Part shown: piece after piece, positions 1 to 55,466 of the stretch
Position numbering within the stretch: position 1 is the first letter of the stretch
Layout: each line of letters starts with the position of its first letter
Assembly: GCA_965644265.1 (NCBI GenBank)
Contig: OZ286468.1
Location: 17,670,001-17,734,000 of the forward strand
Direction: 5' to 3'
DNA from: Glycera tridactyla
Lineage: Eukaryota
Length of the DNA stretch: 64,000 nt
Made by a program: the position numbers and the translations under genes
The notes under the pieces: model-generated
Told to the model about the DNA's origin: nothing
Seen by the model: the letters and a program-made list of their open reading frames with translations, nothing else
The model's database searches: none

Positions 1-3000
1 AACCTACAAATAACAATAGCAGAGACCCCAATTAGATGTAAATTCTTCGTTGTTGATAGATTACCTTTACCAATTATTTTGGGGGGCCATTCATGGCCAC
101 AAATAGAGTAAAATTGGACTACAGTATCGGTGCTTTAACTCTAGGAAATGGATGCCAAACAGTATTATGCCAACCAGTAACGAAAAACGAATCTGAAGCC
201 GAAGCAGCAGGCCGAGCTTTTGATATTTTTGATAGTTATGAACAATTAGACAAACGTCAGGCAAACAAACTTCCCGAAAACAAACAATACAAACAACATG
301 AACATGAAAAAAAAAACCTAACAAACCAAAAACCAACCAACACTTCAAAACCGAAACAAACCGCAAAACACGTAGGCGAACCTATTCAGATACGGTTCTC
401 AGAAGATGAGGACTCTACAATAGACCCATTAGAAGACTATGGCGAAGGCCGTGTCATACTTGACAAGAACTCACATGATAAAACCAGCGATCTACATGTA
501 AGAATTTCACAAGAGGCAACAAAAGACAGGATGAACAAAATTTTGCTTGAAATGGTTCAACATGCTGATGACATCAGACATCAAGCAGTTGAACAGGTCA
601 AGAAGGAGGAATGTCTGGATGTACTTGAAGACATCATTTCCAATCCCGACATTCTGACAAATGAACAGTCTACGGATAGAGACATGTACAAATTCAAGAA
701 ATACAAAGTATTGCCAAGTGAAATGATTGCAGCTAAGAGAATAATGGCTGAGCATGATAGGTTCTATTTAAATGACAAAGGCGTGCTATTCAAGAAATTC
801 CACCAACACCCTGATGACCGGCTGTATCATCAGCTGGTTGTCCCAGTCAAATATAGATTCAAAATAGCAGCACTATTTCATCACGGTGTCCATGGCTCAC
901 ACAGAGGTTTCAACAGCCTGCTGTATATTGTCCGCCAATGATCTTATTGGCCGGGCATGTACGAAGAACTGTTAAAGTATGTGTTGTCTTGTGACACATG
1001 TGGAGCAGTGAAAAGAGATTACTCTCATATCAAAGCCCCCCTACAGATCAGACCCCCCACTACTACATTTGAGACAGTACATATAGATGTACTTAAGGTC
1101 GCACCTACTCCCAAAGGAGACCTTAAGCTACTGGTCATCATAGACAGGTTCTCAAAGCATTTTGAAGCAGAACCTATACCGAACGAAACAGCAGAAACTA
1201 TTGCAAAGACATTTGTGAAGATTTGGATTGAAAGATTCGGACCTCCAAAACAAGTTATTTTGGACAGTGCAGGAGCACACACTTCAGACCTATTCAGAGA
1301 ACTTTCAAACACATTCAAAATGAAATTACAGTTTATTACAAGTTGGCACCCAGCTTCAAATGCTGCGGTGGAGAGAGTGAATTCCAATATACTGAATGCA
1401 CTACGTGCATATATGCAGGAATTTCCGGAAAGACCATGGCCTGAATTTATATCACACATCAGGTGGTCACATGACATATCTGTGCAAAACCACGGATATT
1501 CACCATATGAACTTATGTACGGTCTCAAACCAAACATGTCAGGCGATCTGTCAACAGAGCCCCCTCTGCTTGATGAAATTGCACCAGAAGACGTAATAGA
1601 CAAAATCTGGCCTGATTTGGCTATCATTCGCATGCTAGCCATGAAAAAAGCAAAGGAAAGTGCAGAGAACATGAAGAAGCGATTTGAGAAAAATCCGAAG
1701 GTAAAATTCAAGGAATTTTCACCGGGAGAATCAGTTTGGGTGAAAAATGTCAGACCAGACGTTTCACACCAATACAAAATTTCTGCCAAATTCATAGGAC
1801 CCTTCACTGTTCTAGCCATCCCAGACCAGGGTTTCACCTACTACATCTCCAGAACACCACTTTAGACAGACTAATTACAGATGAGCGATTAAAGAGGTAC
1901 ACGCCCACCTCAGAATCAGTGCTCCGTGCACAGGAGATAGAATTTCAGGAGCGCGTGGACCGCAATACCAGTAACTCACCACAAATTCGTTCTGATAAAA
2001 CAAACAAACCCAACGAGCCACCCAGACCCACAGTTAAAGTAACAGAGACACCCTTGCAAAATATAAACAAACAAACACCATTAAACAGTAGAAAAACAAA
2101 GAAACGCATCTTTTCCAGTAAAAGACCTGATAAAAGATTAGGTACAGCAGGGACTAGGCTGAGCCAAAAAGCTCCTGCGCGGAGACCAGTAAAACCTACG
2201 CGTATGGGCACTTCACCTAAAATTCAGGTTGCATCTAAGAGAGAAGGAGTACACTCACCCACTACTTCAGATGCTGACTCAGAAAGCTCTGATGTATCTG
2301 ATTCACCCACAATAGAACCACCCAAACCACCTCGACCAAATAGACATCGACCCAGAAATAGACAAACTTCTCAAAATGAACAGAATAGGCAAAATTTGGA
2401 AAACACTAGAAGCAGGCAAAATCAGGAAATATCTCCTAGTTCTAACCGAGTTAGAAGGCAAACAGATAAATTACCAACACAAACAAGGCGCGGCAGGGAT
2501 GCAGTTAGCTCGCCATCTGATAGTGATATACCCTCGGAGGCAACGAGCGGTAAATCACTCCCAGCTGTGGGGACCACTTCAGGGAAGGTTAGGCAGGAAC
2601 TTCATGGGGAGAAGCAACCCTCTGACCCAGGTGGAACAAGTCCTAACACCAGGCCGACCCATGGAAATGGACCCAAACCACAAATGATGGACAACCCTTG
2701 GTATAAGCCCAACAAGCTTGTACATTCAAAATTTGATTGGTCTCGACTACTCAGAATTTCAGCATACAGAACAATGGCACACAGAAATTCATTTTTATGT
2801 GATTGGATTGACAAGAACTCGTGCAGGGTGAGGGAGAAGGAAATTCCCCCACACTTCGTGCGTGATTATATGAAAAGATCGAAAATTTTTGTGGGCAGTC
2901 TCAATTGTGTTGACGCGGTCAATATAGACAGGCAGAGGCACAAAACAGTCCGCCCAATCATTCAAAAACAAAAACAGGCAAATAAAGTTTCTCTAAACAC

Positions 3001-3181
3001 GGAAGAGGAGTATGACCTCAAGGAAGATATCAGACAAGAATTCAAATTACTTTTTAGACAAGTCAGATGGCTTCTAATGCGAATTGAACTTATGATTTTG
3101 AGAGAACAATGGAATCAGTTGGAAAAATGGATCAGGGAAACATATTTCTCTCTGGAAATGAAGAAAATAAATAAGGAGTAA
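1..3181 (+). pseudogene. pol: pol-like: aspartic protease C-half, linker, integrase, basic Ser/Pro-rich extension
   Basis: Frame 1 reads LQITIAETPIRCKFFVVDRLPLPIILG, then frameshifts at the G-run (~80) into FMATNRVKLDY. HHCC zinc finger (FHHGVHGSH..RQ*SYWPGM..CDTC) carries an in-frame TGA at 939-941. DDE core (HIDVL, ILDSAG, AAVERVN) and GPY/F-like motif (KFIGPF). Frameshift near 1850 into the 1736-3181 frame (DERLKRY). Confidence 0.85.
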
Positions 3182-3312: not shown

Positions 3313-3789
3313 TCACCGGCTACGGAGGTTCCCCGGACACCAGGGCGACCAGCCTTCTGGTGGCTGGCAACACTGGGCCATTCCATGGTGGCGAAAGGTC
3401 AAGGCTTGAAGATCTCGACCGCGACGGCATTGGCGTTGGGATCCTGGGAGGACTTGTTGGTGGGATATCAGCTCTAGGCGTTGCAGGTTGTCGACCGGCG
3501 GGATGGGGCGCAGTAAAGGCCATAGTGCCAGGTGCGTTCCTATCTTGCATGCGAAAGTCAGAAAGACGTAGGACCCCTGCAGATCCTGTCTATATTGTAG
3601 ACTATGCAAGGGCACCCGTTCCAAAAAGCAGCGAAGAGTGGGCAGGATGTCCCTTGCCCCCGGCTTGTCCATTTCAGTACCCACAGTGAGACGCAATGAC
3701 CGTTGGGCCACAAACAAGTCGTAAGCCAAGACCACGAGACCCTTCAGGCGGGTGACCATACCCAGAACGATATCGTAGGCGCTTGCCAT
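3313..3789 (-). CDS. Antisense 158-aa ORF of unknown function between pol and env
   Basis: Open GC-rich ORF with ACCATGG start context. The plus strand switches from A/C-rich to G/T-rich over ~3250-4700. No recognisable domain. Confidence 0.4.
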   Translation of the reverse strand: MASAYDIVLGMVTRLKGLVVLAYDLFVAQRSLRLTVGTEMDKPGARDILPTLRCFLERVPLHSLQYRQDLQGSYVFLTFACKIGTHLALWPLLRPIPPVDNLQRLELISHQQVLPGSQRQCRRGRDLQALTFRHHGMAQCCQPPEGWSPWCPGNLRSR

Positions 3790-4262
3790 GGTTATACATA
3801 GTAGCGATGTTGTTAGGAAGAAGTCTCAGATGAGAATAACGAAGATGACTCGATCGTGCGAGGAAAAGTGCTCGATGAGGACTGGAAAAGTCCGTGTTGA
3901 GGATCCAAGTATGAACATTTTGAAAAGCAGCGAAAGTTTCGATCAAACAAAAAAAAATAAGAAATAAGGGAAGGGAAGCTAGGTTAAGAGGATTTTGTGG
4001 GGATCACATTGCACCACACCACAGGAGTGCACAAAATGTATTACTAATAACCGTGATGCAACTTGTTGCACGTAGAGGTGATGGGATCCGCCGGCCAGAA
4101 GTTGGTGAATTCCATAGGGGTGTAGCGTGGTACCCCTGATCCTCGAAGCCAGGAAGGCGGGGCTTGCATATGATGCTAGTCCTAAATGAGGATCATAAAG
4201 CTAAGGGGCCAGCGCGTCCTGTGAGGCGACGCTGGATGATTGACAAGTGAAATTATGTATGA

Positions 4263-4680: not shown

Positions 4681-4912
4681 TTTGATGAGAATATTTAATT
4701 TTCCACTACGTCATACTGCAGCAAGGGCGAATACCCTCAGTAATATGTCATTCGGACAAGAGCTATCTATAACCTAAAACACACCTGTTTGAGCAAGATT
4801 GCACAGAAAATTGAAACACAATAGAACAATAAACTAGATGCTCGATCAATGGCCTGTACACCCATTGTTTGACCTATCTAGAAAGCTAGAAGACCATACT
4901 CTTTCTTAAAGA

Positions 4913-7900
4913 ATGGTAAACCTATTACTGAGACGGGTGTTCCATTTGTGTGTTGCAGTGTGGCGGATGCCCAGATCAGGTGTCAGAAAGTGGACATGGA
5001 TACTTTTAATCATGGGGATTACGACAGTGTATGGGCAGTCAGAACTGCTCATGCCAGCAAACTCTGAAGGTATGCCGACCTCTATTCCAGATTGAAGCAG
5101 ACCTGATGAGACAATGAATGCTATAGAACGATTAAATTACGGGGTGCATTTCTCACCTATTGAGTACAGAAAATTATAACTTGATCATAACTTTGCGCTT
5201 GCCAACTACACTCATGGAAGAACCAAAACCACTGGAATGCATTACAGAGGACGGAGAAAAATGCAAATACTCTGATCTTTGTGAGGTTATTTCAGGAATC
5301 GAAAGGAATGTCGAGGGACATGAAATTAGAAATGACACATGGCTGAACTAATCAAACAATTTGAAGCCACGAGACTAGCAATTTCAGTTAATTTAATGAG
5401 AAACATGGCTGCTCACTTACAACTAGGGCAGTACAGCCGTAGCAGACAGAAAAGAGATGCTGAATTTGAGCCAACAGAACCAGACAGAGCGTTACTTGAA
5501 CAAACTGTACAGGGTCTGAACGAAGTCATTTTGGCCTTCAACAGAGCACTGCACAAAAGTGACGCCTCCACTTTTCCAACCTTGGTTGAGAAAGGGATTG
5601 TGGACGCAGGAAAAGTTTTGACTGAAGCAACGAACATTTCAGTCATCAATAGAGATTTAAAAATAGTTAAAGCATCATCATCTAGCATGAACAATATGAC
5701 ATTAAATGATGCTGAGAGGCAACTACACAACGCCCGTGAGTTATACCATTACACATGTACCCCAGCTGACAACACTGGTGATGCTGAATGGCATGCCAGG
5801 AGTGATTTTGTTTGTCTTCATGTCAAAAAGCTCTTGAAAAGAGTATCTAAACTTGCAGCAACCATGACTGAACAGTGTGGTGCAGAAACAGGTAGACTTA
5901 TGGAATTGTTGCGTGAACCAATTGGCAGAAACAAACGTAGTGTTTTTCAAGAAAAGCACCGGATGGCCGTCCAAACATTGTACTCATTGATGAATGCGGT
6001 AACAGATTCTATAGACACAGTTCAATCCCAGGTTTCAGATTTAGGAACAGTTCTGTCAGCAGTAGCTGGCAATAAACATAAACCGGAAGTAAAGAGGCCA
6101 AAAAGAGGATTATTTGATTTTGGAGGAAAATTGATTGATGGCTTATTCGGAGTCATAACCGACGACGAGTTGGCTGGAATCAAGGATGCTCTAAAGACGC
6201 TTGAAACCAACCAGTTCAAACTTCAAGAAGGCATGGCCTTTACAAATGAACGGACTGTAGCAGCTGTGAAAGCTAACAACAAACACCTGCTACAACTAAA
6301 CCGCCTGATGGGCAGAGTTGAGGAAAAATTTGCGAATTTAGTTTCAAATTTCAATCAAGGGTTATACACCAGTGTACGGTACACTTCGTTTGCTGTATCA
6401 ATGGTGGTGACCTTATCACAAGATTTGGCACAAGTAGAAAGACAAATGTCCTGTTTCCTACGTGGACTCAGATACTTGTTGAGAGACAGGCTATCAGTTG
6501 ATCTGATTTCGGAAACTGATCTGACATCAGCATTGACTGAGCTTGAAAGACACATCAGACAAAAGTATCAGTCTTTCAAGGTAGCAGAGATGAGACCTGC
6601 ATATTACTATAAATATGCTAGGCCAGTTTACACATGGGATGGACACACAATCATAATTCATTTATCTGTCCAACTAAGCTCAACAGACGCCACGTTCAGG
6701 TTGTTTCATATCAACACATTTAGAGTGCCAGCAAGCTCAAATGACTCACTGGTGACTCGACCTGTGATCCGAAATGAAATCTTCAGAATATCCAGGGATC
6801 ATTCTCGTTTTCTCGAGATGAGCAGGCTGGATTTCATGCAATGTACAAAATCTGACACTATACGATGCAGGCAAGCTGCTATAATCCATGACACGTACCA
6901 TTACACATGTGCTCTTAGTTTATATCTAGGTGAAAAGGTCAAGATAGATAAATATTGCGCATATCGGTTGGAACTAGCCCATCAACCGCTTAATATCCAC
7001 CCCCTATCTCCTGGGCGAGTACTTGTGATGAACGCTGACAAGGTTTCGATAGGTTGCCCTTCTCGTGCTATGGTCACTCGTGAGGGATGCAAATTTTGTG
7101 TCCTGGAACGACCATGTGCATGCAGTATTACTGTGATAGATGACAAGGGCAAGTCATTGTCAATTTCACCAGCCCTGCATAATTGTTCACGAACCTCATG
7201 GACACGAGAAGCTCAATTCCCACTCATGTCTTTAATGCAGATTTCAATAGTGTCATAGCTAGGAATCCAATGTATGATGCATCTAGTATTTGGGAAGAGT
7301 ATCTATCACTACAGAAAAATGAATGGTATAAATGGATTGGTCTAATGTTTAACTTTACAGTGAGGTATATTTCAGACCAAACACCATGACAACAGTTGCC
7401 ATGGCAACCAGGCTACCTATAATTTAATGAAAAATCACACATTTTGACCTGGCGCCATGTCTCCTGCATAGAAACTCTCTAAATGAAAATTCTTTTCCAT
7501 AAACGAACATATTCCGTACAACATTAAAGATGTAACTTGTTCATTTTTTGATTTTTTCAATCAGGATTTGACTTTTAAGTCAGAAAGATCGCAAAAAATG
7601 CGATTTTTGGGATATTCGATCCCAAATATCGTCATGAAAATGATGGATCTCAAAAAGTTACATGTCTCCTATGATCATGGTCAACCCCTTCTACAAATTC
7701 AAAACTATATCATCCCTGTAAATATCCCCAAGACATGGCGCTAGGGACATCTATGAAATGATGAGATGAAATCCCAGGTTTCCATGGTTGCCATGGCAAC
7801 CATAGTGGTGGTGTTGATATCAAAATGCAAATCGAATTGAAGGTAAAGTTCTTTCCTCCATCTATGATAACATTTATTTTGGGTCGGTGGAATTTATCTT

Positions 7901-8621
7901 GTTCGAAAATTCGATATAGTCATAGGTGTTGGATTCACAATCAAACATACCAAGATCTGCATTAACGACATGAGCAGTAAACCTTGCAGCACTTTCCCGA
8001 ATAATGAACCCGGCAGAACTAATTAATTACACTGCCACAACATACGTAAATTCAGAAGCAAAAATCCCAGAACCACAGTTGACGGTCAATTCAGACCACA
8101 CAGACTTAAATTTTCATGAATTATACAAATTCGGTATGGATTTGGAGGATGCAGTAGAGCAGGTCAAGCTAGGCCAGCATATCAATCCGTTTGGTTTGAA
8201 ACACCTTGGCAATTCAACACCAGGTGTCTTTCAGACTAATTGGCCCTTGTTTGTCGGCATGTCTCTGGCAATCATCATCATGATTATGTTGATCGTTTGC
8301 TTGTGTCGATACAAATACACGCCTTGGATGAAGCGGTATGCAAGTGATCCCTTGCCAACTTTGCCGCCAGACCAATTAATCCATTATGATGCTGGGAAGC
8401 ATCATCATGAATGTTTGGGGAATGTATCACCAAAAGCATGTGTCTCACCCAGACCATCAACTTCATCACCAACCCATTTTAGAAAAGTAGATTCATAAAA
8501 ACAAATCCCACCCTATGCAAGAAGCTCTCAGTCAGCTTCACCCAAAAATTCCAAGAAAAGACCAACACCACTCCCAGCAAAACTAAAAGTAAGATTTGAC
8601 ATCGAAGAAGACCAGCTGTGA
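4913..8621 (+). pseudogene. env: env: class I fusion glycoprotein of errantivirus/baculovirus-F type, disrupted
   Basis: Signal peptide (WILLIMGITTVYG), RLNYGVHF motif, furin site RPKR followed by fusion peptide GLFDFGGKLIDGLFGV, heptad repeat, Cys-rich region, TM segment WPLFVGMSLAIIIMIMLIVCLC and cytoplasmic tail. Stops at 5093 and 8496, frameshifts near 5160 and 5339, MITE at 7223-7974. Confidence 0.85.
7223..7974. mobile_element. Non-autonomous DNA transposon (MITE), 752 bp
   Basis: 20-bp TIRs CTCATGTCTTTAATGCAGAT (7223-7242) and ATCTGCATTAACGACATGAG (7955-7974), 1 mismatch. CA is duplicated on both sides. Removal restores the env frame F-P-V-N-L-A-A-L. Confidence 0.9.
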
Positions 8622-10690: not shown

Positions 10691-12869
10691 TACCAGCACT
10701 TTGAGGTACTGCGTGATGCCTCATTTGAATCTTTTCTGAGTGGCAACACCAGAACCATATTTTGTATTGATGTAAAAATGTATGTATATATAATTTAGAA
10801 TATTTTAATTGGCCATGCCAATCATGTAACTGAAAATTGTATTTGTGTATTGAAATGATTCAGGACACTCCGTGTGGCAACACCGGAACTGTACTCGAAT
10901 TTTATAGTTGTGTAGATTTATGTATTCTAATGTTGTATAGAAATTAGCTAATGTTTTGTATTTTATGTATTCTAAGTATTATAGAAATTTGCTTATATTT
11001 TGTATTTGTATATTTATGTATTTTAAGAGTTTGATTATGTTTGATTTGTATATGTAGAATAGGTATTCAGCTTTGGGTGCGTCATACATTGCGTCATGGA
11101 CTGAATGGAGTTTTATGATAAAGTAGTCTATGATTACATTGTATAGAACCCAAAGAATACGTGGATGTAATATTTTATATAAGAGTTGCTCAAACGGCCT
11201 GCATGCCAACAGAGACAGCTGTTATACTGTACATAGATTAGTATGAAAATTGTATTCATGTATTTTAGAAAGATGCGTCATGCATCAGTGCGGGACAAAT
11301 GCATGATGTCTCCCAAAATTTCGAAATTGAAAATTCTGTGAGTCACATTAGTGGCAATATCAGCACTGTATATAGGGATAGGTGAAAATTGATTTGATGT
11401 AGTGTAGAATTGTTTGTAGACAGTGATGATTGAACATTCAATCATCTGACTGAATATTCAATTATCATTTAACGTAGTGTAGAGTTATTGAATTGATATA
11501 ATGTAGACTGTAATAATTGAACATTCAGTCATTCGACCGAATATTCAATTACAATGTTATGATGAAATCTGAATGGAAACTTCATATTAGGCTCTTTTGG
11601 CAACCATTTTCAGGCTTATATTTGGCATCATGGAAGTTTCCATTACCAATGTTGTTTTGACGATATTCCTAAGAGAATTTCAGACGGTAAACATTTGAAG
11701 AATGCTTTCAGGCGATTTTATGGTATCATTGGAATGTTTCGATCTTTTATGACTAACTATTTGGCCTTATCTGACTTTTAGAATGTGTTAATTGGAATTT
11801 ACATCACTGTATTTTTGAGTTGTTTATTGATGAAACCATTTGATCTTAAAAGGCGGAAGCATGCAGTCTCCGTATGAACTTTTACTATGTGTGAATTTGA
11901 TAATAAAATGGTTTGAGGAAGGGACACCATACGAAAGTGATGGCAGAACGAGTAACCCCCCCCCCCCCTTATCTACACCTTAGGAACATTAGTAACATGT
12001 GTATTTGTAACAAGATGACAGCTTTATGTCTTAGGGCACGAGGCGAACATCTGTTAGATGTCAGACGCTTGTTGAGTAGATCATCAAGACCAACACACAC
12101 CGCCCATCATGGGTGATTCAATTGTTTACACAAGAATATCTAACACAGACTTTCTTTTGCAATGCCGTTTTTGGCGGAGCAAAAACCTTGAAAGTTTGAG
12201 GAATATTTTATATAGCCATGTACCACGGCTATCAAACTGTTACCATAGCTACAATAACACTAATGATTATTTACACAGGCACGCGACCACCGACTGACCT
12301 TCGCACTGCGAGTATACAGGCAACTGACCATTTCATAATTCATTTACGCGCGGTTTACAGAGCAACAGGCACCGGCCTACACAACCTATCCAGCGCATAT
12401 TTGACCAACCGAATGCAGGGTAACTATAGAGGTCATGAACCCTCAACTCTTGATATATGGGCGACTTTGACATAATGTTTCACATATTTTCCGTCATATG
12501 GAGCCGTTACTGACCACAGCCTCATTATCACAACCCATTAACGGGAATAGGGTAACAGGGTGTTGTAGGATCAGGGTTCGGTGTACCAGGCACGGCCTGG
12601 CACGCCGAGGCGCAGATCTACTAATAATAGTAACATTTCTGTCAAAGTTACATAAATCACATAAATCGATACCGGCCGCAGGGGCACTTAAGGGATCCAC
12701 CCTAACCCCTGTTCGAGGCCAGGGATCCGATAAGATTCGAGAAACCGCGAGACTTGCCACTGATTGGTTCTTAATGACATCATGGACAGTCCGGCCAGTC
12801 AAACGGAAGTAATAATCCCATATATGATTTTGGGATTTCCAATGATGGTGCAATACCGCCGACATGCAC

Positions 12870-12876
12870 TATAAAA
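12870..12876 (+). promoter_or_regulatory. TATA box in putative LTR U3
   Basis: GCACTATAAAAGAGG in the expected position within the putative LTR. Confidence 0.45.
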
Positions 12877-13084
12877 GAGGTCGCAAATGCGAGCTCCACA
12901 AGATGTTTAAGCATAGAACATCTTGCGTATTCCAACCGCATTGAAGAGACGATCGACGCCACTCCTAGAACATCGAGGATTACCATCGAGCGCCTATCGA
13001 GATAGAAGACAAAGCCGCCACCAACTCTCCGCAGCATTTATTAGGATTTTACGGATTTTTGAATGCCTGGTGGACGCAAACACA

Positions 13085-13345
13085 GTCAGCGCAAGCACAA
13101 TCAGCGCAAGCACAGTCAGCAGCTGCCGTGTGCACGCACACACAACCCGCAGCCGATCAGCGAACCTACGCACGTTAACTGCACGTATCCGGAGTGTTTA
13201 CGAGCCAAGCGCGCGGACCTACCAGCCACGCACAACCAGCGCACGCAGGAGGGATGCACGCACAGTCAGAGCACGCACATCGGACGCACGCACAATCAGC
13301 GCACGCACATCGGACGCACGCACAATCAGCGCACGCACATCGGAT
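13085..13345. repeat. Minisatellite inside putative LTR
   Basis: CAGCGCAAGCACA(A/G)T units, then 30-bp units GCACGCACATCGGACGCACGCACAATCAGC. Confidence 0.85.
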
Positions 13346-14462
13346 ACACTTATTATCCACACACACACTTTGGAGTACCACATCAGAGAAACACACACAG
13401 TCAGTATACTTATCACCGCCAGACGCACAAACACACACTAGCTAGTGAAAAGCGACATGTAGTACATCAAACATTGCTGGGCCTCATTAAGCGGGTTACA
13501 CGCATCCATCAGCTTCTTGACACACATCTTAGATCAAATATTCGCTAGAGGGCACAGAAAGTCACTGTATCAAGTAGCTTCCGGTTGGGCTTAGTTGTAA
13601 TCAGCTTAGGACTTAGTTGATTGCTTGTGAGTTCGTTGGATTGGACTTGATCGGTACTTGGTGTCCATTGTTTAGGCAGAGTGAGCTCACTTCTTTGTGT
13701 TGTTGGGAGATTGTTAGAAGCATTATCCGTGGGTTCAACCTTCCCCTGCCTCACTTAGTTGGTGTTTCCGGACTCAACTAATTCTAAAGCTAGCCAAGCG
13801 AGTTTGTTTTATTCATACCCCAAAAGCATCTGTGATTGATTGATAGAGTCATTATAGTAATATCAACGGGATACTCTGGACTGGACGCAGACTAATTGAT
13901 GGACAGACGGACAGATAAAACTAGCCACAGGGAGCGACCAGCACTTACAGGTGGTTGCAAGGGTCCTCAACCTTCATCAACGTTCGTTGGTTGATTATAG
14001 GATCCTTAAACCAGAGCTGACTGCGTTCCCGAGTGAACACGCGGGGTGCAATATATGAACTCATTATAGTTGCTCAGAGGTTAGTAGAATAGGGAATTTT
14101 GACTTTTAGCTAGGCCGGAGGTCTTTGTTCTAACCGCTAACAAATCCTGAGACAACGGTGAGATCCAATCTTCTGATTGACGCCTAATCCAAAGGTGGCT
14201 TTTCCGAGACTGGACTTTCACTGAATTTTTGGGACAGAGAGGGTTATCCGTTGAGGTTATTCAAACACTATATCAATCAACACCGGTATCAAAAGAAACC
14301 CCCATTAGAAAAATTAATATTTAAATATCTCCCTGGTTATTAATCTAATTACCACACACATAAATAATCCATTCATTCGCCTACGGTATCAGCATAAGAA
14401 ACAGTTGTTGTTGTTGTACGGAAAGTGTAGTAGTGAATGAGATAGTGGTACAAGTGATTGGT

Positions 14463-14760: not shown

Positions 14761-15249
14761 GTGCCTCACCTAATGTATCAGAAGAAACTCGAGCTATTGA
14801 GTAGAATACCCGATGATGTTTTCACCGTATCTCAGTGTCTATCGCTGAAACAATTTTTCGTCTAGTACTACTGAATAATTGATTCACACGTATCAGTTTT
14901 TGCTTGTCATCTCCAAGTGTAGCTGACGGAGTATGGAGTCCACGATTTAGGGAATCCTTTGAGCACCTATTAGATAAATTATCCTCTAGCTAAAGCAGGA
15001 TGTGAACAAGACAGTTTCAACGATCACCTGTCAACTCCTACCAGCTCTTTGTGCAGTTATTACTATCGCTGACGCCACCATCACCACTACCACCATCACC
15101 ATGATCAATAATCAACAATACCATGATGAAGCTTATTTGCCTAGATCATTGGAGTCTTTATTACAACAGATGGTGTTGATAGTCTTCCTATTTCAACAGG
15201 CATAACATCCATTCCAATCCTTTCCACTGGACAGCGGGCCAAGTTAACA

Positions 15250-17303
15250 GAGACATTGTTGGTAACAAATAGTTGGTGCATCCTACGCAAGTCTGCCTTC
15301 AGTGCAAGTTTGATGTCACGGAAGAGCTCTTAAGTTACATTACCTTCCATGTTCCATGTATCTCCTATCCACTAGGTGTGAATTTACCATCTGGTCAAAT
15401 TCCCCATGGCTCTTGTCACGAGGAGGCATAATGTCTTCTCTGTCACATCAGCCGACATGAGGTGTCTTAGAATGTGCTTGAACTCTGCTGGGATGAGATA
15501 GATCTCCATTTCCCAAACGAGCTCTCGCTAATGTATTGTATGATTGTCACTATTGAAGAAAAGCGAATGAAGATCTGTGCTTCCATTCAAAAACATCGTC
15601 AGCAATGTTATTGCAATTTTAAATTGGTACCATTCTCTCCTTGAAATGTGTAAATCCGACCTGAGACGTGATGAAATGTACTTCCATATGCATTAGTGAT
15701 GATATGACTTCAATTTGTTATTCAATATATTCAACAACACAAGTTGTCTGTTCTTCATTGGGTCACAGACACGCATTATATTCTTTCACCAGGCTCGACC
15801 CTTCTTATGTCTGAGGAGGGAGGGTATTACAGCGTCTCAGACGATGACATCATTGTGCTGTCAAATTCTGGGCACACAATGATTACATGGAACTCACAAT
15901 TTTCTGATTATGCAAGGTTTGTATAGGCCCTAGAGATGACGAAATGCTGAGTGTCTGCATCTGCGTTGGAATGTCCATGCTCTTGAAATGCATCCAGAAA
16001 GACCATCGAATTTTGAACATTTTAACTGTCCTCTCACATTTGTCCAATGCACGTCTTGGTGCTCTGGTTACCGGTCAACCTTTCCAAATAATGCCGAAAA
16101 TGGCTTCTGTCATATGGCAAGTAGTATGATTGATTCAATTTTTGAGCATTAGATTAAGTTTGTTCAGGTTGATTGGGTAGAGGTGTGTCGCACCTGTCAG
16201 CTACTTCCTCTTGACAACGTTTCAGGTTCCCCATCAAACTGTGTTAAGGGTTCATGAGAGAGATGTCTGCAGGGGAAAGAATGTCTAGCTTTCATCAACC
16301 AGGAACACACAGCATACATAATCCCAGGGTTGAAACATGATGTTTAAACACCAGCCAAACAAACAATCATCAATATCGTCCCGGCGTCACCGTCATCATC
16401 GTCATCGCAATCAAATCCATCGTGGCTGTTGCTGTGATCACCGTCGTCATCGTCGTCATTAGCAATGCCATCATCAACGTCGCCATCATGTCATCATTCT
16501 CAACATCACATCTATTCATCTTGAACAATGGCCCATTCCTATGGGTAATATGTGGAGTCCATTTGCGCCACGAGGGAAGTGTTTGCCATATGCAAAAAAA
16601 TGAGATTGCCTAAATGGCTCTGTATAATTGAACCATTTACAACCAGACAATGCATACAAAATGAAGTCGGTGCCACCTAGTGTCGCAATGGGTTGCCTTC
16701 AGCATTGGTGTCACTGCATTCAGTGGCAAGATGATTCACCATCCCATGGTTCAAGGTCACCATTCGTAATTTTTGCAGGCTCTCGATCATCCACGTTTCT
16801 GAAGTTCTATATTATCACACCGTCACAGCTGAAGACATTTAGAATGATGCATTATCTCCTTCGAACAGTGAGAGTCAGGTTTGCAACTTTCTTGTACTCT
16901 TGCAGCATATCCATGTATGTATGACTTCTACATCGTTCGTGAAGTTACAGTAGGTCCATGGTTCATCAACTTTGCAAGCTATAGTATGTCAATTATCAGG
17001 TAACGAAATGGCAATCTCCGCCTGAACGTCTCAACAGGAGAGTTCACAAATACAGGTAAAGTCAAGGATCAATTATTGATTGACAGTTTCATGATTGTTG
17101 TGTAGAGAAGTATGAATCTGAATAATAGGATGTCCTTCCGAGACCAAACTCAAGGTGTTCAGGCAACCGATTAACTTTTTCAAGGTCCTGAAATTCAACG
17201 TTTTAACGAGTATAAATATATTGGTATTGTACCTAATGATACATTGACATTCGAAGCACACAGTGAATAACAATTGAAAAAAATCGTCACAAGACGTTCT
17301 GCG
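15250..17303 (-). pseudogene. Decayed LRR/TIR (Toll-like-receptor-like) pseudogene
   Basis: Minus-strand fragments in TLR order: FRTLKKLIGCLNTLSLVSEGHPIIQI, LQKLRMVTLNH and EGNPL (LRR-like); RRVEPGERI (cf. RDFxPG); ISSRL..REWYQFKIA (cf. SxWCxFE); ELFRDIKLALK (TIR end). Many stops and frameshifts. Confidence 0.5.
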
Positions 17304-34980: not shown

Positions 34981-36956
34981 TCAGAAGAAACTCGAGCTAG
35001 TGAGTAGAATACCCGATGATGTTTTCACCGTATCTCAGTGTCTATCGCTGAAACAATCTTTTGTCTAGTACTACTGAATAATTGATTCACACGTATCAGC
35101 TTTTGCTTGTCATCTCCAAGTTTGGCTGACAGAGTATGGAGTCCACGATGTAGGGAATCCTTTGAGCACCTATTAGATAAATTATCCTCTAGCTTAAGCA
35201 GGATGTGAACAAGACAGTTTCAACGATCACCTGTCAACTCCTACCAGCTCTTTGTGAAAATTTACATAATCATCAAATTTCCAAAAGACTTGCTGTCTGC
35301 TTAGGTTTCGACAGCTTCTGGCAAAGTTTCCCTGCTCCAAGACCCCTGGAAATACCACAACAAGACAGTGTTTGCAATCGTTTATCGAATGAATGATATT
35401 TAGATGAAAATTCGAGTGAATGCAAAGCAAATTCATTGAATCCTATTTCGGAAGAATATTGACATGAAGCAGTTGTCACAATGCCCTTCAGGAAGGCTTC
35501 CTTGATCTTCATTGGTGTAGATGGAACATGGGGGGAGGGTTGAGGGATAGGCTTTTTCGAAAGTCATCTGGTGTACATTAGGGAGCCAGTGAAGTGTTTC
35601 TTTCAGGATAGAGGTGATACGCTGATCGTGGCTGCAGGACACTGTTAAAAGGGCAGCACAGTTCATTTCATGTTGAAGCTTTCTGATCTGAGACTTCGGG
35701 AGGCCAAAGAGTGCACTATTGCAATAGTCGAGTCTGAATGAGGTGAGAGGGTGTGTCAGGGTCTTTGTAGCTTCAGGTCTGATGCATTCATGGATGCGGT
35801 TTTGTGCAGTTATTACTATCGCTGACGCCACCATCACCCCTACCACCATCACCATGATCAATAATCAACAATACCATGATGAAGCTTATTTGCTTAGTTC
35901 ATTGGAGTCTTTATTACAACAGATGGTGTTGATAGTCTTTCTATTTCAACAGGCATAACGTCCATTCCAATCCTTTCCACTGGACAGCGGGCCAAGTTAA
36001 CAGAGACATTGTTGGTAACAAATAGTTGGTGCATCCTACGCAAGTCTGCCTTCAGTGCAAGTCTGATGTCACGGAAGAGCTCTTAAGATACATTACCTTC
36101 CATGTTCCATGTATCTCCTATCCACTAGGTGTGAATTTACCATCTGGTCAAATTCCCCATGGCTCTTGTCACAGGGAGGCATAATGTCTTCTCTGTCACA
36201 TCAGCCGACATGAGGTGTCTTAGAATGTGCTTGAACTCTGCTGGGATAGGATAGATCTCCATTTTCCAAACGAGCTCTCGCTAATGCATTGTATGATCGT
36301 CACTATTGCGAAAAGCGAATGAAGATCTGTGGTTCCATTCGAAAACATCATCACCAATGTTATTGCAATTTTAAATTGGTACCATTCTCTCCCTGAAAAG
36401 TGTAAATCCGACCTGAGACGTGATGAAATGTACTTCCATATGCATTAGTAATGATTTAACTTCAATTTGTGTAATCAATATATTCAACAACATGAGTTGT
36501 CTGTTTTTCATGGGTCACAGACACGCATTTTTTTCTTTCACCAGGCTCGACCTTTCTAATGTCTGAGGAGGGAGGGTATTACAGTGTCTCAGACGATGAC
36601 ATTATTGTGCTGTCAAATTCTGGGCACACAATGATTACATGGAGCACACCATTTTCTGATTATGCAAGGTTTGTATAGGCCCTAGAGATGACAAAATGCT
36701 GAGTGTCTGCATCTGCGTTGGAATGTCCATGCTTTTGAAATGCATCCGGAAAGACCATCGAATTTTGAACATTTTAACTGTCCTCTCACATTTGTCCAAT
36801 GCACGTCTTGGTGCTCTGGTTACCGGTCCACCTATTCAAATAATGCCGATAATGGCTTCTGTCATATGGCAAGTAGTATGATTGGAGTTGATGCTTTGTA
36901 ATCATTAGATTCAATTTTTGAGCATTAGATTAAGTTTGTTCAGGTTGATTGGGTAG
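34506..36956 (+). repeat. Recent duplication, copy B part 1 (includes the duplicate TIR-like remnant on the minus strand)
   Basis: Matches 14390-16180, except for the 544-bp insert. Confidence 0.92.
35257..35800 (-). mobile_element. 5'-truncated L2-type LINE fragment
   Basis: Absent in copy A. Flanked by a TTTGTG direct repeat (35251-35256 and 35801-35806). Encodes SFRLDYCNSALFGLP..LQ..N.AA..ITSIL..LHWLP, the L2 ORF2 C-terminus. Confidence 0.85.
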
Positions 36957-40821: not shown

Positions 40822-41369
40822 CCAGCAGATACAGTCTGCTTTTAACAGGGTTTTTGATGGGGGGGTGGGTGGGGAGGGGAGGATGGAGTGGTAGGAATGA
40901 AAAGAATTTTTTTAGTAGTTCGTTCCTTGGTTAACTGTATGATTCTCCTGCATGTAAATATATGGATTGTGGTATTACATATGCGAGATTAGTCAGGCAT
41001 GCATCCTATGTACATGTTCACACCCGGTAGTGAGAACAGATCAGGGGGTTTAACAGCAGCCATGATAGCTCGTTTGGCCTACTCGTATGAATAGCAGCCA
41101 GGCTTGCATCCTAGGTCCATGCATGTAGGTCAACGTCAGCTTAGTTGTCACTGCTGGTTCTACTGATTGATTTGTGCCAGTGAGTGGCCGGACGTACATC
41201 CCAGGTTCACTATCACATCAAACTTCGGTTATGTTCGGTAGTTTCGAAGCCTTTGTTATGTTAAAGAATGACAAGTAAAGAATAACAAGAATAACAAGTA
41301 GCTCAACACAACATGATGATATTAATGTTAGCTCTACGTTTATATGGGATAGAACAATAGATCTATCTG

Positions 41370-41552
41370 TACCATTTCTCCCTCAAATTCTGCATTCCCC
41401 AGGCCGAATGCCTACGTGCGAACATTATAACAATATAAAATTTATTCAGAGGATGGAACCCCCGGATGACCTCCATTAACACCAGGTGGATCTGTCAGAA
41501 TACACCACCAGAGGTCGCGCCGTTTCCACTGTTTACCTTTGTATTTTTCAAC
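41370..41552 (+). repeat. DIRS left inverted terminal repeat
   Basis: Reverse complement of 49462-49644, with 2 mismatches seen in 183 bp. Confidence 0.95.
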
Positions 41553-49461: not shown

Positions 49462-49683
49462 GTTGAAAAATACAAAGGTAAACAGTGGAAACAGCGCGAC
49501 CTCTGGTGGTGTATTCTGACAGATCCACCTGGTGTTAATGGAGGTCATCCGGGGGTTCCATCCTCTAAATAAATTTTATATTGTTATAATGTTCGCACGT
49601 AGGCATTCGGCCTGGGGAATGCAGAATTTGAGGGAGAAATGGTAAGTATAGATCCCCAGGTTAAATGAATAAACCTGGGGGGG
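49462..49683 (-). repeat. DIRS right inverted terminal repeat plus right extension
   Basis: Inverse of the left ITR to 49644, then an extension ending in a G-run (49677-49689). Confidence 0.93.
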
Positions 49684-54233: not shown

Positions 54234-54240
54234 TTTGTGG

Positions 54241-55466
54241 AGGTGTGTCACACCTGTCAGCTACTTCCTCTTGACAACGTTTCAGGTTCCCCATCGAACT
54301 GTGTTAAGGGTTCATGAGAGAGATGTCTGCAGGGGAGAGAATGTCCAGCTTTCATCAACCAGGAACACACAGCATACATAATCCTAGGGTTGAAACATGA
54401 TGTTTGAACGCCAGCCAAACAAACAATCATCAATATCGTCCCGGCGTCACCGTCATCATCGTCATCACAATCAAATCCATCGTGGCTGTTGCTGTGATCA
54501 CCGTCGTCATCGTCGTCATTGGCAATGCCATCATCAACGTCACCATCACGTCATCATTCTCAACATCACATCTATTCATCTTGAACAATGGCCCATTTCT
54601 ATGGGTAATATGTGGAGTCCATTTGCGCCACGAGGGAAGTGTTTGCCATATGCAAAAAGAGAATGAGATTGCCTAGTGGCTCTGTATAATTGAACCATTT
54701 ACAACCAGACAATGCATACTAAATGAAGTCGGTGCCACCTTGTGTCGCAATAGGTTGCCTTCAGCATTGGTGTCACTGCATTCAGTGGCAAGATGATTCA
54801 CCATCCCATGGTTCAAGGTCACCATTCGTAATTTTTGCAGGTTCTCGATCATCCACGTTTCTGAAGTTCTATATTATCACACCGTCACAGCTGAAGACAT
54901 TTAGAATGATGCATTATCTCCTTCGAACAGTAAGAGTCAGGTTTGCAACTTTCTTGTACACTTGCAGCATATCCATGTATGTATGACTTCTACATCATTC
55001 GTGAAGCCACAGTAGGTCCATGGTTCATCAACTTTGCTAGCTATAGTATGTCAATTATCAGGTAACGAAATGGCAATCTCCCTCTGAACGTCTCAACAGG
55101 AGAGTTCACAAATACAGGTTAAGTCAAGGATCGATTATTGATCGATAGTTTCATGATTGTTGTGTAGCGAAGTATGAATCTGAATAATAGGATGTCCTTC
55201 CGAGCCCAAACTCAAGGTGTTCAGGCAACCGATTAACTTTTTCAAGGTACTAAAATTCAACGTTTTAACGAGTATAAATATATTGGTATTGTACCTGATG
55301 AGACATTGACATTCAAAGCACACACTGAATAACAATTGAAAAAAAATCGTTACAAGACGTTCTGCGCTCTCGCATATCAGACCATTTATCTCTGAAAAGA
55401 GAGCACTATTATCTATCACCCGTTGTTACAAGATAATTTTGTACTCTGTGGAATGAGTGCCAGGGC
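54241..55466 (+). repeat. Recent duplication, copy B part 2
   Basis: Matches 16181-17303 joined directly to 21772-21871. Confidence 0.92.

Follow-up and report, generated by a model that had tools for sequence, protein, structure and literature searches.

A family of env-bearing LTR elements in the genome of Glycera tridactyla, classed as Ty3/Gypsy on its sequence features, occurs in two forms, one of which lacks the reverse transcriptase (RT) and RNase H (RH) portion of pol. This RT-less morph makes up about one third of the sampled copies and probably spreads through packaging together with RT-bearing genomes from its own family; it represents a deletion variant within an autonomous family, not a new RT-less architecture. 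The stretch of DNA analysed, referred to here as the window, comprises 64,000 nt of contig OZ286468.1 (positions 17,670,001–17,734,000), and its first base falls inside pol of an LTR element, which a preliminary description had taken for a possible member of an RT-less family.

The window element is an old, decayed copy of the RT-less morph, and the following features, the insertion in env apart, lie on its plus strand. As initially described, the window opens with the C-terminal half of an aspartic protease (PR; 1–165), for which DTG lies just 5′ of the window start, gag with two zinc knuckles precedes the protease, and Pfam Asp_protease exceeds its cut-off when scored in an unbroken copy. 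It is followed by the deletion junction (172–195; joint at 181/182 with 1-nt ambiguity), by the spacer between RH and integrase (IN; 182–640) and by the integrase itself (640–1817), which comprises an H2C2 zinc finger (~840–1013), the rve core (1071–1352) and an SH3-like end (1725–1817). The low-complexity pol tail (1820–3181), which may resemble a chromodomain, includes a short block (~2740–2880) conserved in a sister family; neither the putative chromodomain nor a putative dUTPase gave a Pfam hit. Env and an LTR lie downstream, in agreement with the earlier reading: an F-type env (Baculo_F; 4853–8621), which is a 994-aa ORF in unbroken copies and broken here, with a ~750-bp insertion (7223–7974) not present in 5 of 5 other regions compared; a purine-rich tract adjoining the 3′ LTR (12190–12203), likely the polypurine tract (PPT), which has an identical 25-mer in 39 of the 42 copies where it was found; and a 2.17-kb 3′ LTR truncated at its 3′ end (12206–14378). 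LTR comparison placed the 5′ LTR upstream of the window, at about −5858 to −3691, and the two LTRs differ by 4.0%, among the highest divergences of the copies compared. The pol of this copy is not open (frame-1 stop at 109–111, breaks near 86 and near 1820, integrase stop at 939–941). An antisense ORF of 120–200 codons is present between pol and env (window 3313–3825, minus strand) in 4 of 4 copies.

RT-less elements measure ~19.4 kb and RT-bearing (RT+) copies ~21.5 kb, both with gag, pol and env. The order in RT-less elements is a 2.2-kb LTR, primer-binding site (PBS), gag, pol, a ~1.6-kb gap, env, ~3.4 kb, the purine tract and the 3′ LTR; gag has an open stretch of ~1000–1090 codons, pol ~1231 aa and env 994 aa, and one RT+ copy has a continuous pol of 1940 aa. 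In all 27 motif-matched copies gag and pol share a frame and are separated by TGA (L013:9487–9498), pointing to likely readthrough; one in-frame stop likewise separates gag and pol in sister families. Pfam matches in gag were weak and below cut-off (Retrotrans_gag E 0.006, Ty3_capsid E 0.009), and those of H2C2, rve and Baculo_F were above it (the last with E 1.7e-8 and 34 bits vs a cut-off of 24.1); a GPF motif was read by eye in the integrase, and env had no sequence match in PDB. Eleven nt of the PBS are complementary to the 3′ terminus, CCA added, of a tRNA-Ala(AGC) encoded in the genome. LTRs end in TTTTATA..TATAAAA beside the target-site duplications (TSDs; window 12206; L013:4145), not in TG..CA, the usual ends of Ty3/Gypsy LTRs, to which exceptions exist. 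TSDs are 4 bp long, and insertion sites are often simple repeats, (TAG)n and (CA)n among them, those of sister family B sitting in (TA)n. Ty3/Gypsy pol genes have the order PR-RT-RH-IN; this order in RT+ copies, together with the gag and IN motifs and the LTR, PBS, PPT and 4-bp TSD, assigns the family to env-bearing Ty3/Gypsy elements as far as sequence features can. Copies also occur in tandem with a shared LTR (19.35-kb period, contig C3) and in clustered or nested arrangements (L060–L062; L015–L018; L022–L024). Separately, contig C40 holds a tandem array of tRNA genes at ~79.6–80.0 Mb, with a 3.44-kb unit of 8 tRNA genes and about 80 units matched.

The reported lack of RT was borne out, as YxDD occurs in no ORF of at least 110 aa in the whole RT-less elements scanned (4/4, the window element included), and a search upstream, on the minus strand and after IN found no RT in the element, gag directly adjoining PR. 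Window positions 1–900 were matched end to end by all 40 scored matches, drawn from 1315 candidates (94–95% identity; the window itself 100%), which makes the PR–IN junction multi-copy. Two of 4 public runs have contigs with the joint as well, and an assembly artefact is therefore excluded. Four RT+ copies fetched (4/4) have 93–95% nucleotide identity, the same LTR and the same tRNA-Ala PBS, and are collinear with the RT-less form save for one block between PR and spacer. Of the 22 copies in which this block was measured, 19 have a length of 2112 bp and the other three are 1–3 bp shorter (lengths include one shared base; two further RT+ copies were not measurable). The block contains the PR–RT spacer, RVT_1 and RT_RNaseH, both domains scoring above the Pfam cut-off. 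On these alignments the RT-less form is a single in-frame 2112-bp deletion at 181/182, a plain deletion scar, with gag and env, PR and IN, the native spacer and the LTRs, PBS and PPT all retained. The 'linker' between PR and IN, previously thought to be an evolved spacer, is collinear with RT+ copies and alignable to RT+ sister families, family C among them, and is therefore the native RH–IN spacer; it can also be aligned to P0005, an outside relative. Splicing was rejected as the origin of the junction, because GT is missing from the start of the excised segment in both registers.

The first 100 of 601 IN matches (contigs C1–C10) comprised 60 RT+ copies, 36 deleted copies and 4 others. Coordinates alone assigned an intact junction to 53 of these matches and a deleted junction to 9, and the remaining 38, once fetched, yielded 27 deleted copies with the same breakpoints, 7 RT+ copies and 4 fragments or other deletions. 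The same junction is present in all 36 deleted copies (27 by alignment, 9 by exact junction pattern), which contradicts a one-off deletion in the window copy, an option left open at the outset: most copies of the family do carry RT-RH between PR and IN, but the deletion is not private. Exact patterns matched 69 deleted and 442 intact junctions genome-wide (0 for controls); the first junction pattern, the source of the 69 matches, undercounts, having missed 27 of the 36 deleted census copies. If the census proportions (36 and 60 per 100) hold for all 601 exact matches, the genome would contain about 200 deleted and ~350 complete copies. Copies sampled from the exact-pattern lists were hand-picked, with a bias to young RT+ copies, and a sub-lineage of the junction was initially missed.

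Deleted copies have inserted independently, and have done so from long ago until the very recent past. Among 20 deleted copies picked across the 69 exact-pattern matches, nine have a 4-bp TSD of their own, the LTR pairs of the 16 that could be compared are 0.00–5.24% apart, and in 7 of the 20 the two LTRs are 0–0.1% apart. The own TSDs and near-identical LTR pairs indicate that RT-less copies therefore still retrotranspose and, as these copies have no RT, we infer that RT is supplied in trans; the suggestion that it is borrowed from a helper is thus most likely correct. Median LTR divergence was 0.25% for deleted and 0.12% for RT+ copies (16 vs 18 copies, P=0.19). All of gag, pol and env are long-open in 6 of the 20 deleted copies. 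The supposed single open frame from PR to IN, disrupted by stops and breaks in the window copy, is a property of other copies: PR to IN core lies in one frame in 13 of the 20 deleted copies, the same count as among 20 RT+ copies, and in 24 of the 27 deleted copies of a second set.

We favour the explanation that RT would be delivered in trans within mixed particles, where RT+ and RT-less RNAs packaged together would exchange sequence by template switching, renewing all but the junction; recombination with RT+ genomes could by itself keep the remaining ORFs open. A compatible but tentative proposal adds to trans-supplied RT a cis selection on the RT-less genome for open Gag-PR-IN (and Env), which would make this genome a working partner and not a pure parasite. 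Consistent with it, the reading frame is maintained across the deletion and neither PR nor IN is lost, although a deletion falls in frame with a chance of 1 in 3. Eleven frameshifts were found in deleted copies, none of them shared, and no stop is common to three or more copies, although about two disruptive shared changes were expected by a rough estimate and the zero found is not significant. Variants of PR and IN that are confined to deleted copies and shared by at least three of them were nonsynonymous to synonymous as 5:12, vs 114:72 among singletons (P=0.018; IN alone, P=0.064), but such variants may derive by recombination from RT+ alleles that are old or lie outside the sample, and changes at the junction are nonsynonymous as often as synonymous. 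Purifying selection on shared variants is strong throughout the family, omega being 0.07 for IN, 0.10 for gag, 0.11 for env, 0.17 for PR and 0.40 for the spacer; it was 0.12, 0.36, 0.27, 0.31 and 0.51, respectively, for those found in deleted copies only, values in keeping with cis selection, but the figures for variants confined to RT+ copies (0.00, 0.27, 0.13, 0.00 and 0.51) are equal or lower in every gene. In sister family B a PR–IN deletion was present in 1 of 19 copies examined (L209:2585); it is out of frame and single-copy, only itself spanning its junction among 40 scored matches, a contrast that is suggestive only, being a single case.

Spread of the deleted form by DNA-level events, that is segmental duplication, unequal exchange or gene conversion with no need of RT, seems very unlikely. 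The family does make tandem and nested arrays, and conversion could mix flanks, but 12 of 25 deleted copies, spread over many contigs, have different 4-bp TSDs and flanks, and these distinct sites together with the closely matching LTR pairs point to fresh retrotransposition. Mixing of the sequences flanking the deletion is most simply explained by template switching in co-packaged pairs, and ectopic gene conversion could also produce it.

The sequence around the junction bears on whether the deletion arose once. A site 26 nt before the junction has one allele in 24 of 25 deleted copies vs 1 of 24 RT+ copies, and in 11 of 12 vs 0 of 22 when young copies are considered; the single RT+ exception is the longest RT+ branch in the PR and spacer–IN trees. 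Allele frequencies of the two morphs differ on average by 0.28 and 0.27 in the pair of 100-nt bins adjoining the junction and by 0.01–0.11 beyond 300 nt from it (52 vs 30 copies), so that a haplotype of ~200–300 nt accompanies the junction, with no linkage to the deletion in the LTR; nested changes exclusive to deleted copies are also located at the junction. In trees of five segments (FastTree on short, similar sequences, with 6 of 49 rows omitted for PR, 2 for spacer–IN, 6 for env, 0 for gag and 7 for LTR), deleted copies form no clade. Changes of label between the morphs numbered 5 vs a shuffled mean of 14.6 for PR, 6 vs 15.8 for spacer–IN, 10 vs 14.5 for env, 14 vs 16.6 for gag and 14 vs 14.4 for LTR, with values as low in 0, 0, 7, 60 and 247 of 500 shuffles, respectively. 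This pattern fits one old deletion allele whose flanks have been exchanged with RT+ genomes over many cycles. Recurrence of an identical deletion at a hotspot, through a template jump or splicing, with each deleted copy a dead end, is highly improbable: the absence of a clade in any segment would agree with it, as would a short near-repeat, with one unit at the 5′ breakpoint and the other 18 nt ahead of the 3′ breakpoint, but it is largely refuted by the linked sites, namely the allele retained by young deleted copies and the nested private changes, and the deletion ends share only 1 nt, in addition to the missing GT.

The helper thus appears to be the RT+ majority of the same family. A genome search with P0005, an outside match with no RT in Pfam, led to RT-bearing, env-bearing sister families, and a search with the RT DNA of one sister returned a large group at 73% identity, of which the copies fetched belonged to the family of the window element (4/4). 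A genome search with Pfam RT_RNaseH covered 150 of 15583 candidates, and the helper was identified by the other searches. Sister families B, C and D were rejected as helpers, their IN being just 66–72% identical in nucleotides and their LTRs different; they are also not needed. P0005 was considered as an ancient RT-less relative and rejected, since it is a fragment beginning at the RNase H end and aligning across the 'linker'. A separate RT-less family with an evolved PR–IN spacer and an unrelated helper is refuted here: an open PR–IN frame is indeed common to many copies, and many copies without RT but with IN and env are still inserting, as had been proposed, but RT+ copies are the majority of the very same family, the spacer is native, and the closest outside relatives carry RT-RH (RH in 3 of 3 scanned, RT in 2 of 3). 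At least three further sister families with RT and env share the tRNA-Ala PBS (L031–L050, L063–L068); their LTRs measure 0.6, 2.2–2.6 and 2.5 kb and their pol 1809–1993 aa, and one sister-family copy has a duplicated RT, with two YMDD motifs in 2277 aa.

Helper-dependent deletion morphs are known in mammalian endogenous retroviruses and plant LTR elements. Mouse IAP 1delta1 has a shared internal in-frame deletion of 1.9 kb of gag and pol, creating a fused ORF, and is amplified in trans by full-length members; most IAPs are without env, and a cis role of the fusion protein is reported (PMC6466679). The present morph resembles it in having one shared in-frame internal deletion and a fused ORF, trans amplification being inferred here, and differs in that the cut lies wholly in pol, PR and IN are spared, gag and env are kept, and the host element is Ty3/Gypsy and not a retrovirus. 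In bovine ERVK[2-1-LTR], defective D-types exist beside a competent morph, with trans-complementation and pervasive recombination via co-packaging, and MusD/ETn, KoRV/RecKoRV and HERV-K type 1 are named as comparable; the D-types are described as having no functional genes, and in the C/D, MusD/ETn and KoRV pairs a central segment is replaced by old retroelement DNA (PMC10924933). In line with a trans-complemented morph of the IAP 1delta1 or D-type kind, one deletion is found in many independent insertions beside a competent partner that has the same cis signals and recombines with it; unlike the bovine case, we see a clean deletion in a Ty3/Gypsy host, with gag, pol and env left long-open in the six copies mentioned above.

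Among env-bearing relatives, 'ancient errantiviruses' are described as env-bearing Ty3/Gypsy elements with an F-type or gB-type env (PMC13524379). The family shares with them the gag-pol-env order, the F-type env, the tRNA PBS and the many young copies, and is set apart from them by its ~21.5-kb length and TT..AA LTR ends; its PBS motif was not found in 7 supplementary files of the survey. The survey demanded full-length RT and discarded truncated elements, 'non-autonomous' occurring 0 times in its text, and its filter therefore excludes an RT-less morph by design (PMC13524379): the deleted morph has no RT, whereas the 1940-aa pol of the RT+ copy holds RT and IN, both full-length, in an uninterrupted ORF. 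RT-anchored surveys thus overlook a large mobile fraction of such families. Gmr1-like Gypsy elements have the order PR-IN-RT-RH; the deleted form has PR followed by IN as they do, but no RT-RH after IN, and the RT+ copies have PR-RT-RH-IN. Troyka elements have CG..CG ends, 3-bp TSDs, LTRs of 100–400 bp and no env (PMC12440569), and on those features the likeness is limited to LTR ends other than TG..CA, with ends, TSD, LTR length and env all differing; membership in the Troyka and Gmr1-like groups was rejected. A search of titles and abstract beginnings, without Repbase and subscription journals, found no env-bearing invertebrate Gypsy element that had lost only RT-RH with gag, PR, IN and env open. 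As a natural experiment, the family could show which of the retroelement's proteins work in cis and how frequently genomes packaged together recombine.

Copies of the family have an unusual U5 end. Across 34 aligned copies, the 50 nt directly preceding the PBS contain 3% G and are identical between pairs at a median of 0.48, and identity is 0.92–1.00 in 12 other intervals from −550 to +100 and 0.76 in the first interval, at the alignment edge. This U5 tip lies at L013:6280–6328, the end of the 5′ LTR (~3.7 kb upstream of the window), and at ~14330–14378 in the window. It agrees between the two LTRs of one copy in 26 of 30 cases (0.87–1.0) and is discordant (about 0.5) in the other four, three of which have a duplication of the U5 end. 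Such a duplicate end was found in 9 of 43 copies and is preceded by an 18–19-nt stretch complementary to tRNA-Ala (for example L028 ~6235–6300), which suggests a misplaced plus-strand jump. Four copies of sister family B showed no such variability, folding gave no support for a hairpin around the tip (z 0.34–1.13 in 4/4 folds), and a literature search on U5-tip variability returned only a review; our guess is that it arises through errors or mis-jumps as reverse transcription begins. A broader and rather doubtful picture would combine these observations into a stable two-morph element in which RT is a shared good, the RT-less genome (about one third of copies, through the whole visible history) is cis-selected for Gag-PR-IN and Env, and the 50-nt U5 tip, hypermutated and G-free in either morph, results from an unusual step in the initiation of reverse transcription.

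Beyond the element, the window contains dispersed repeats with 94–98% identity (14778–16914 vs 34981–36956 and 54237–54976), likely other mobile elements, as well as an inverted pair of 193 nt separated by 7.9 kb (41360–41552 vs 49462–49654) that likely belongs to a mobile element as well.
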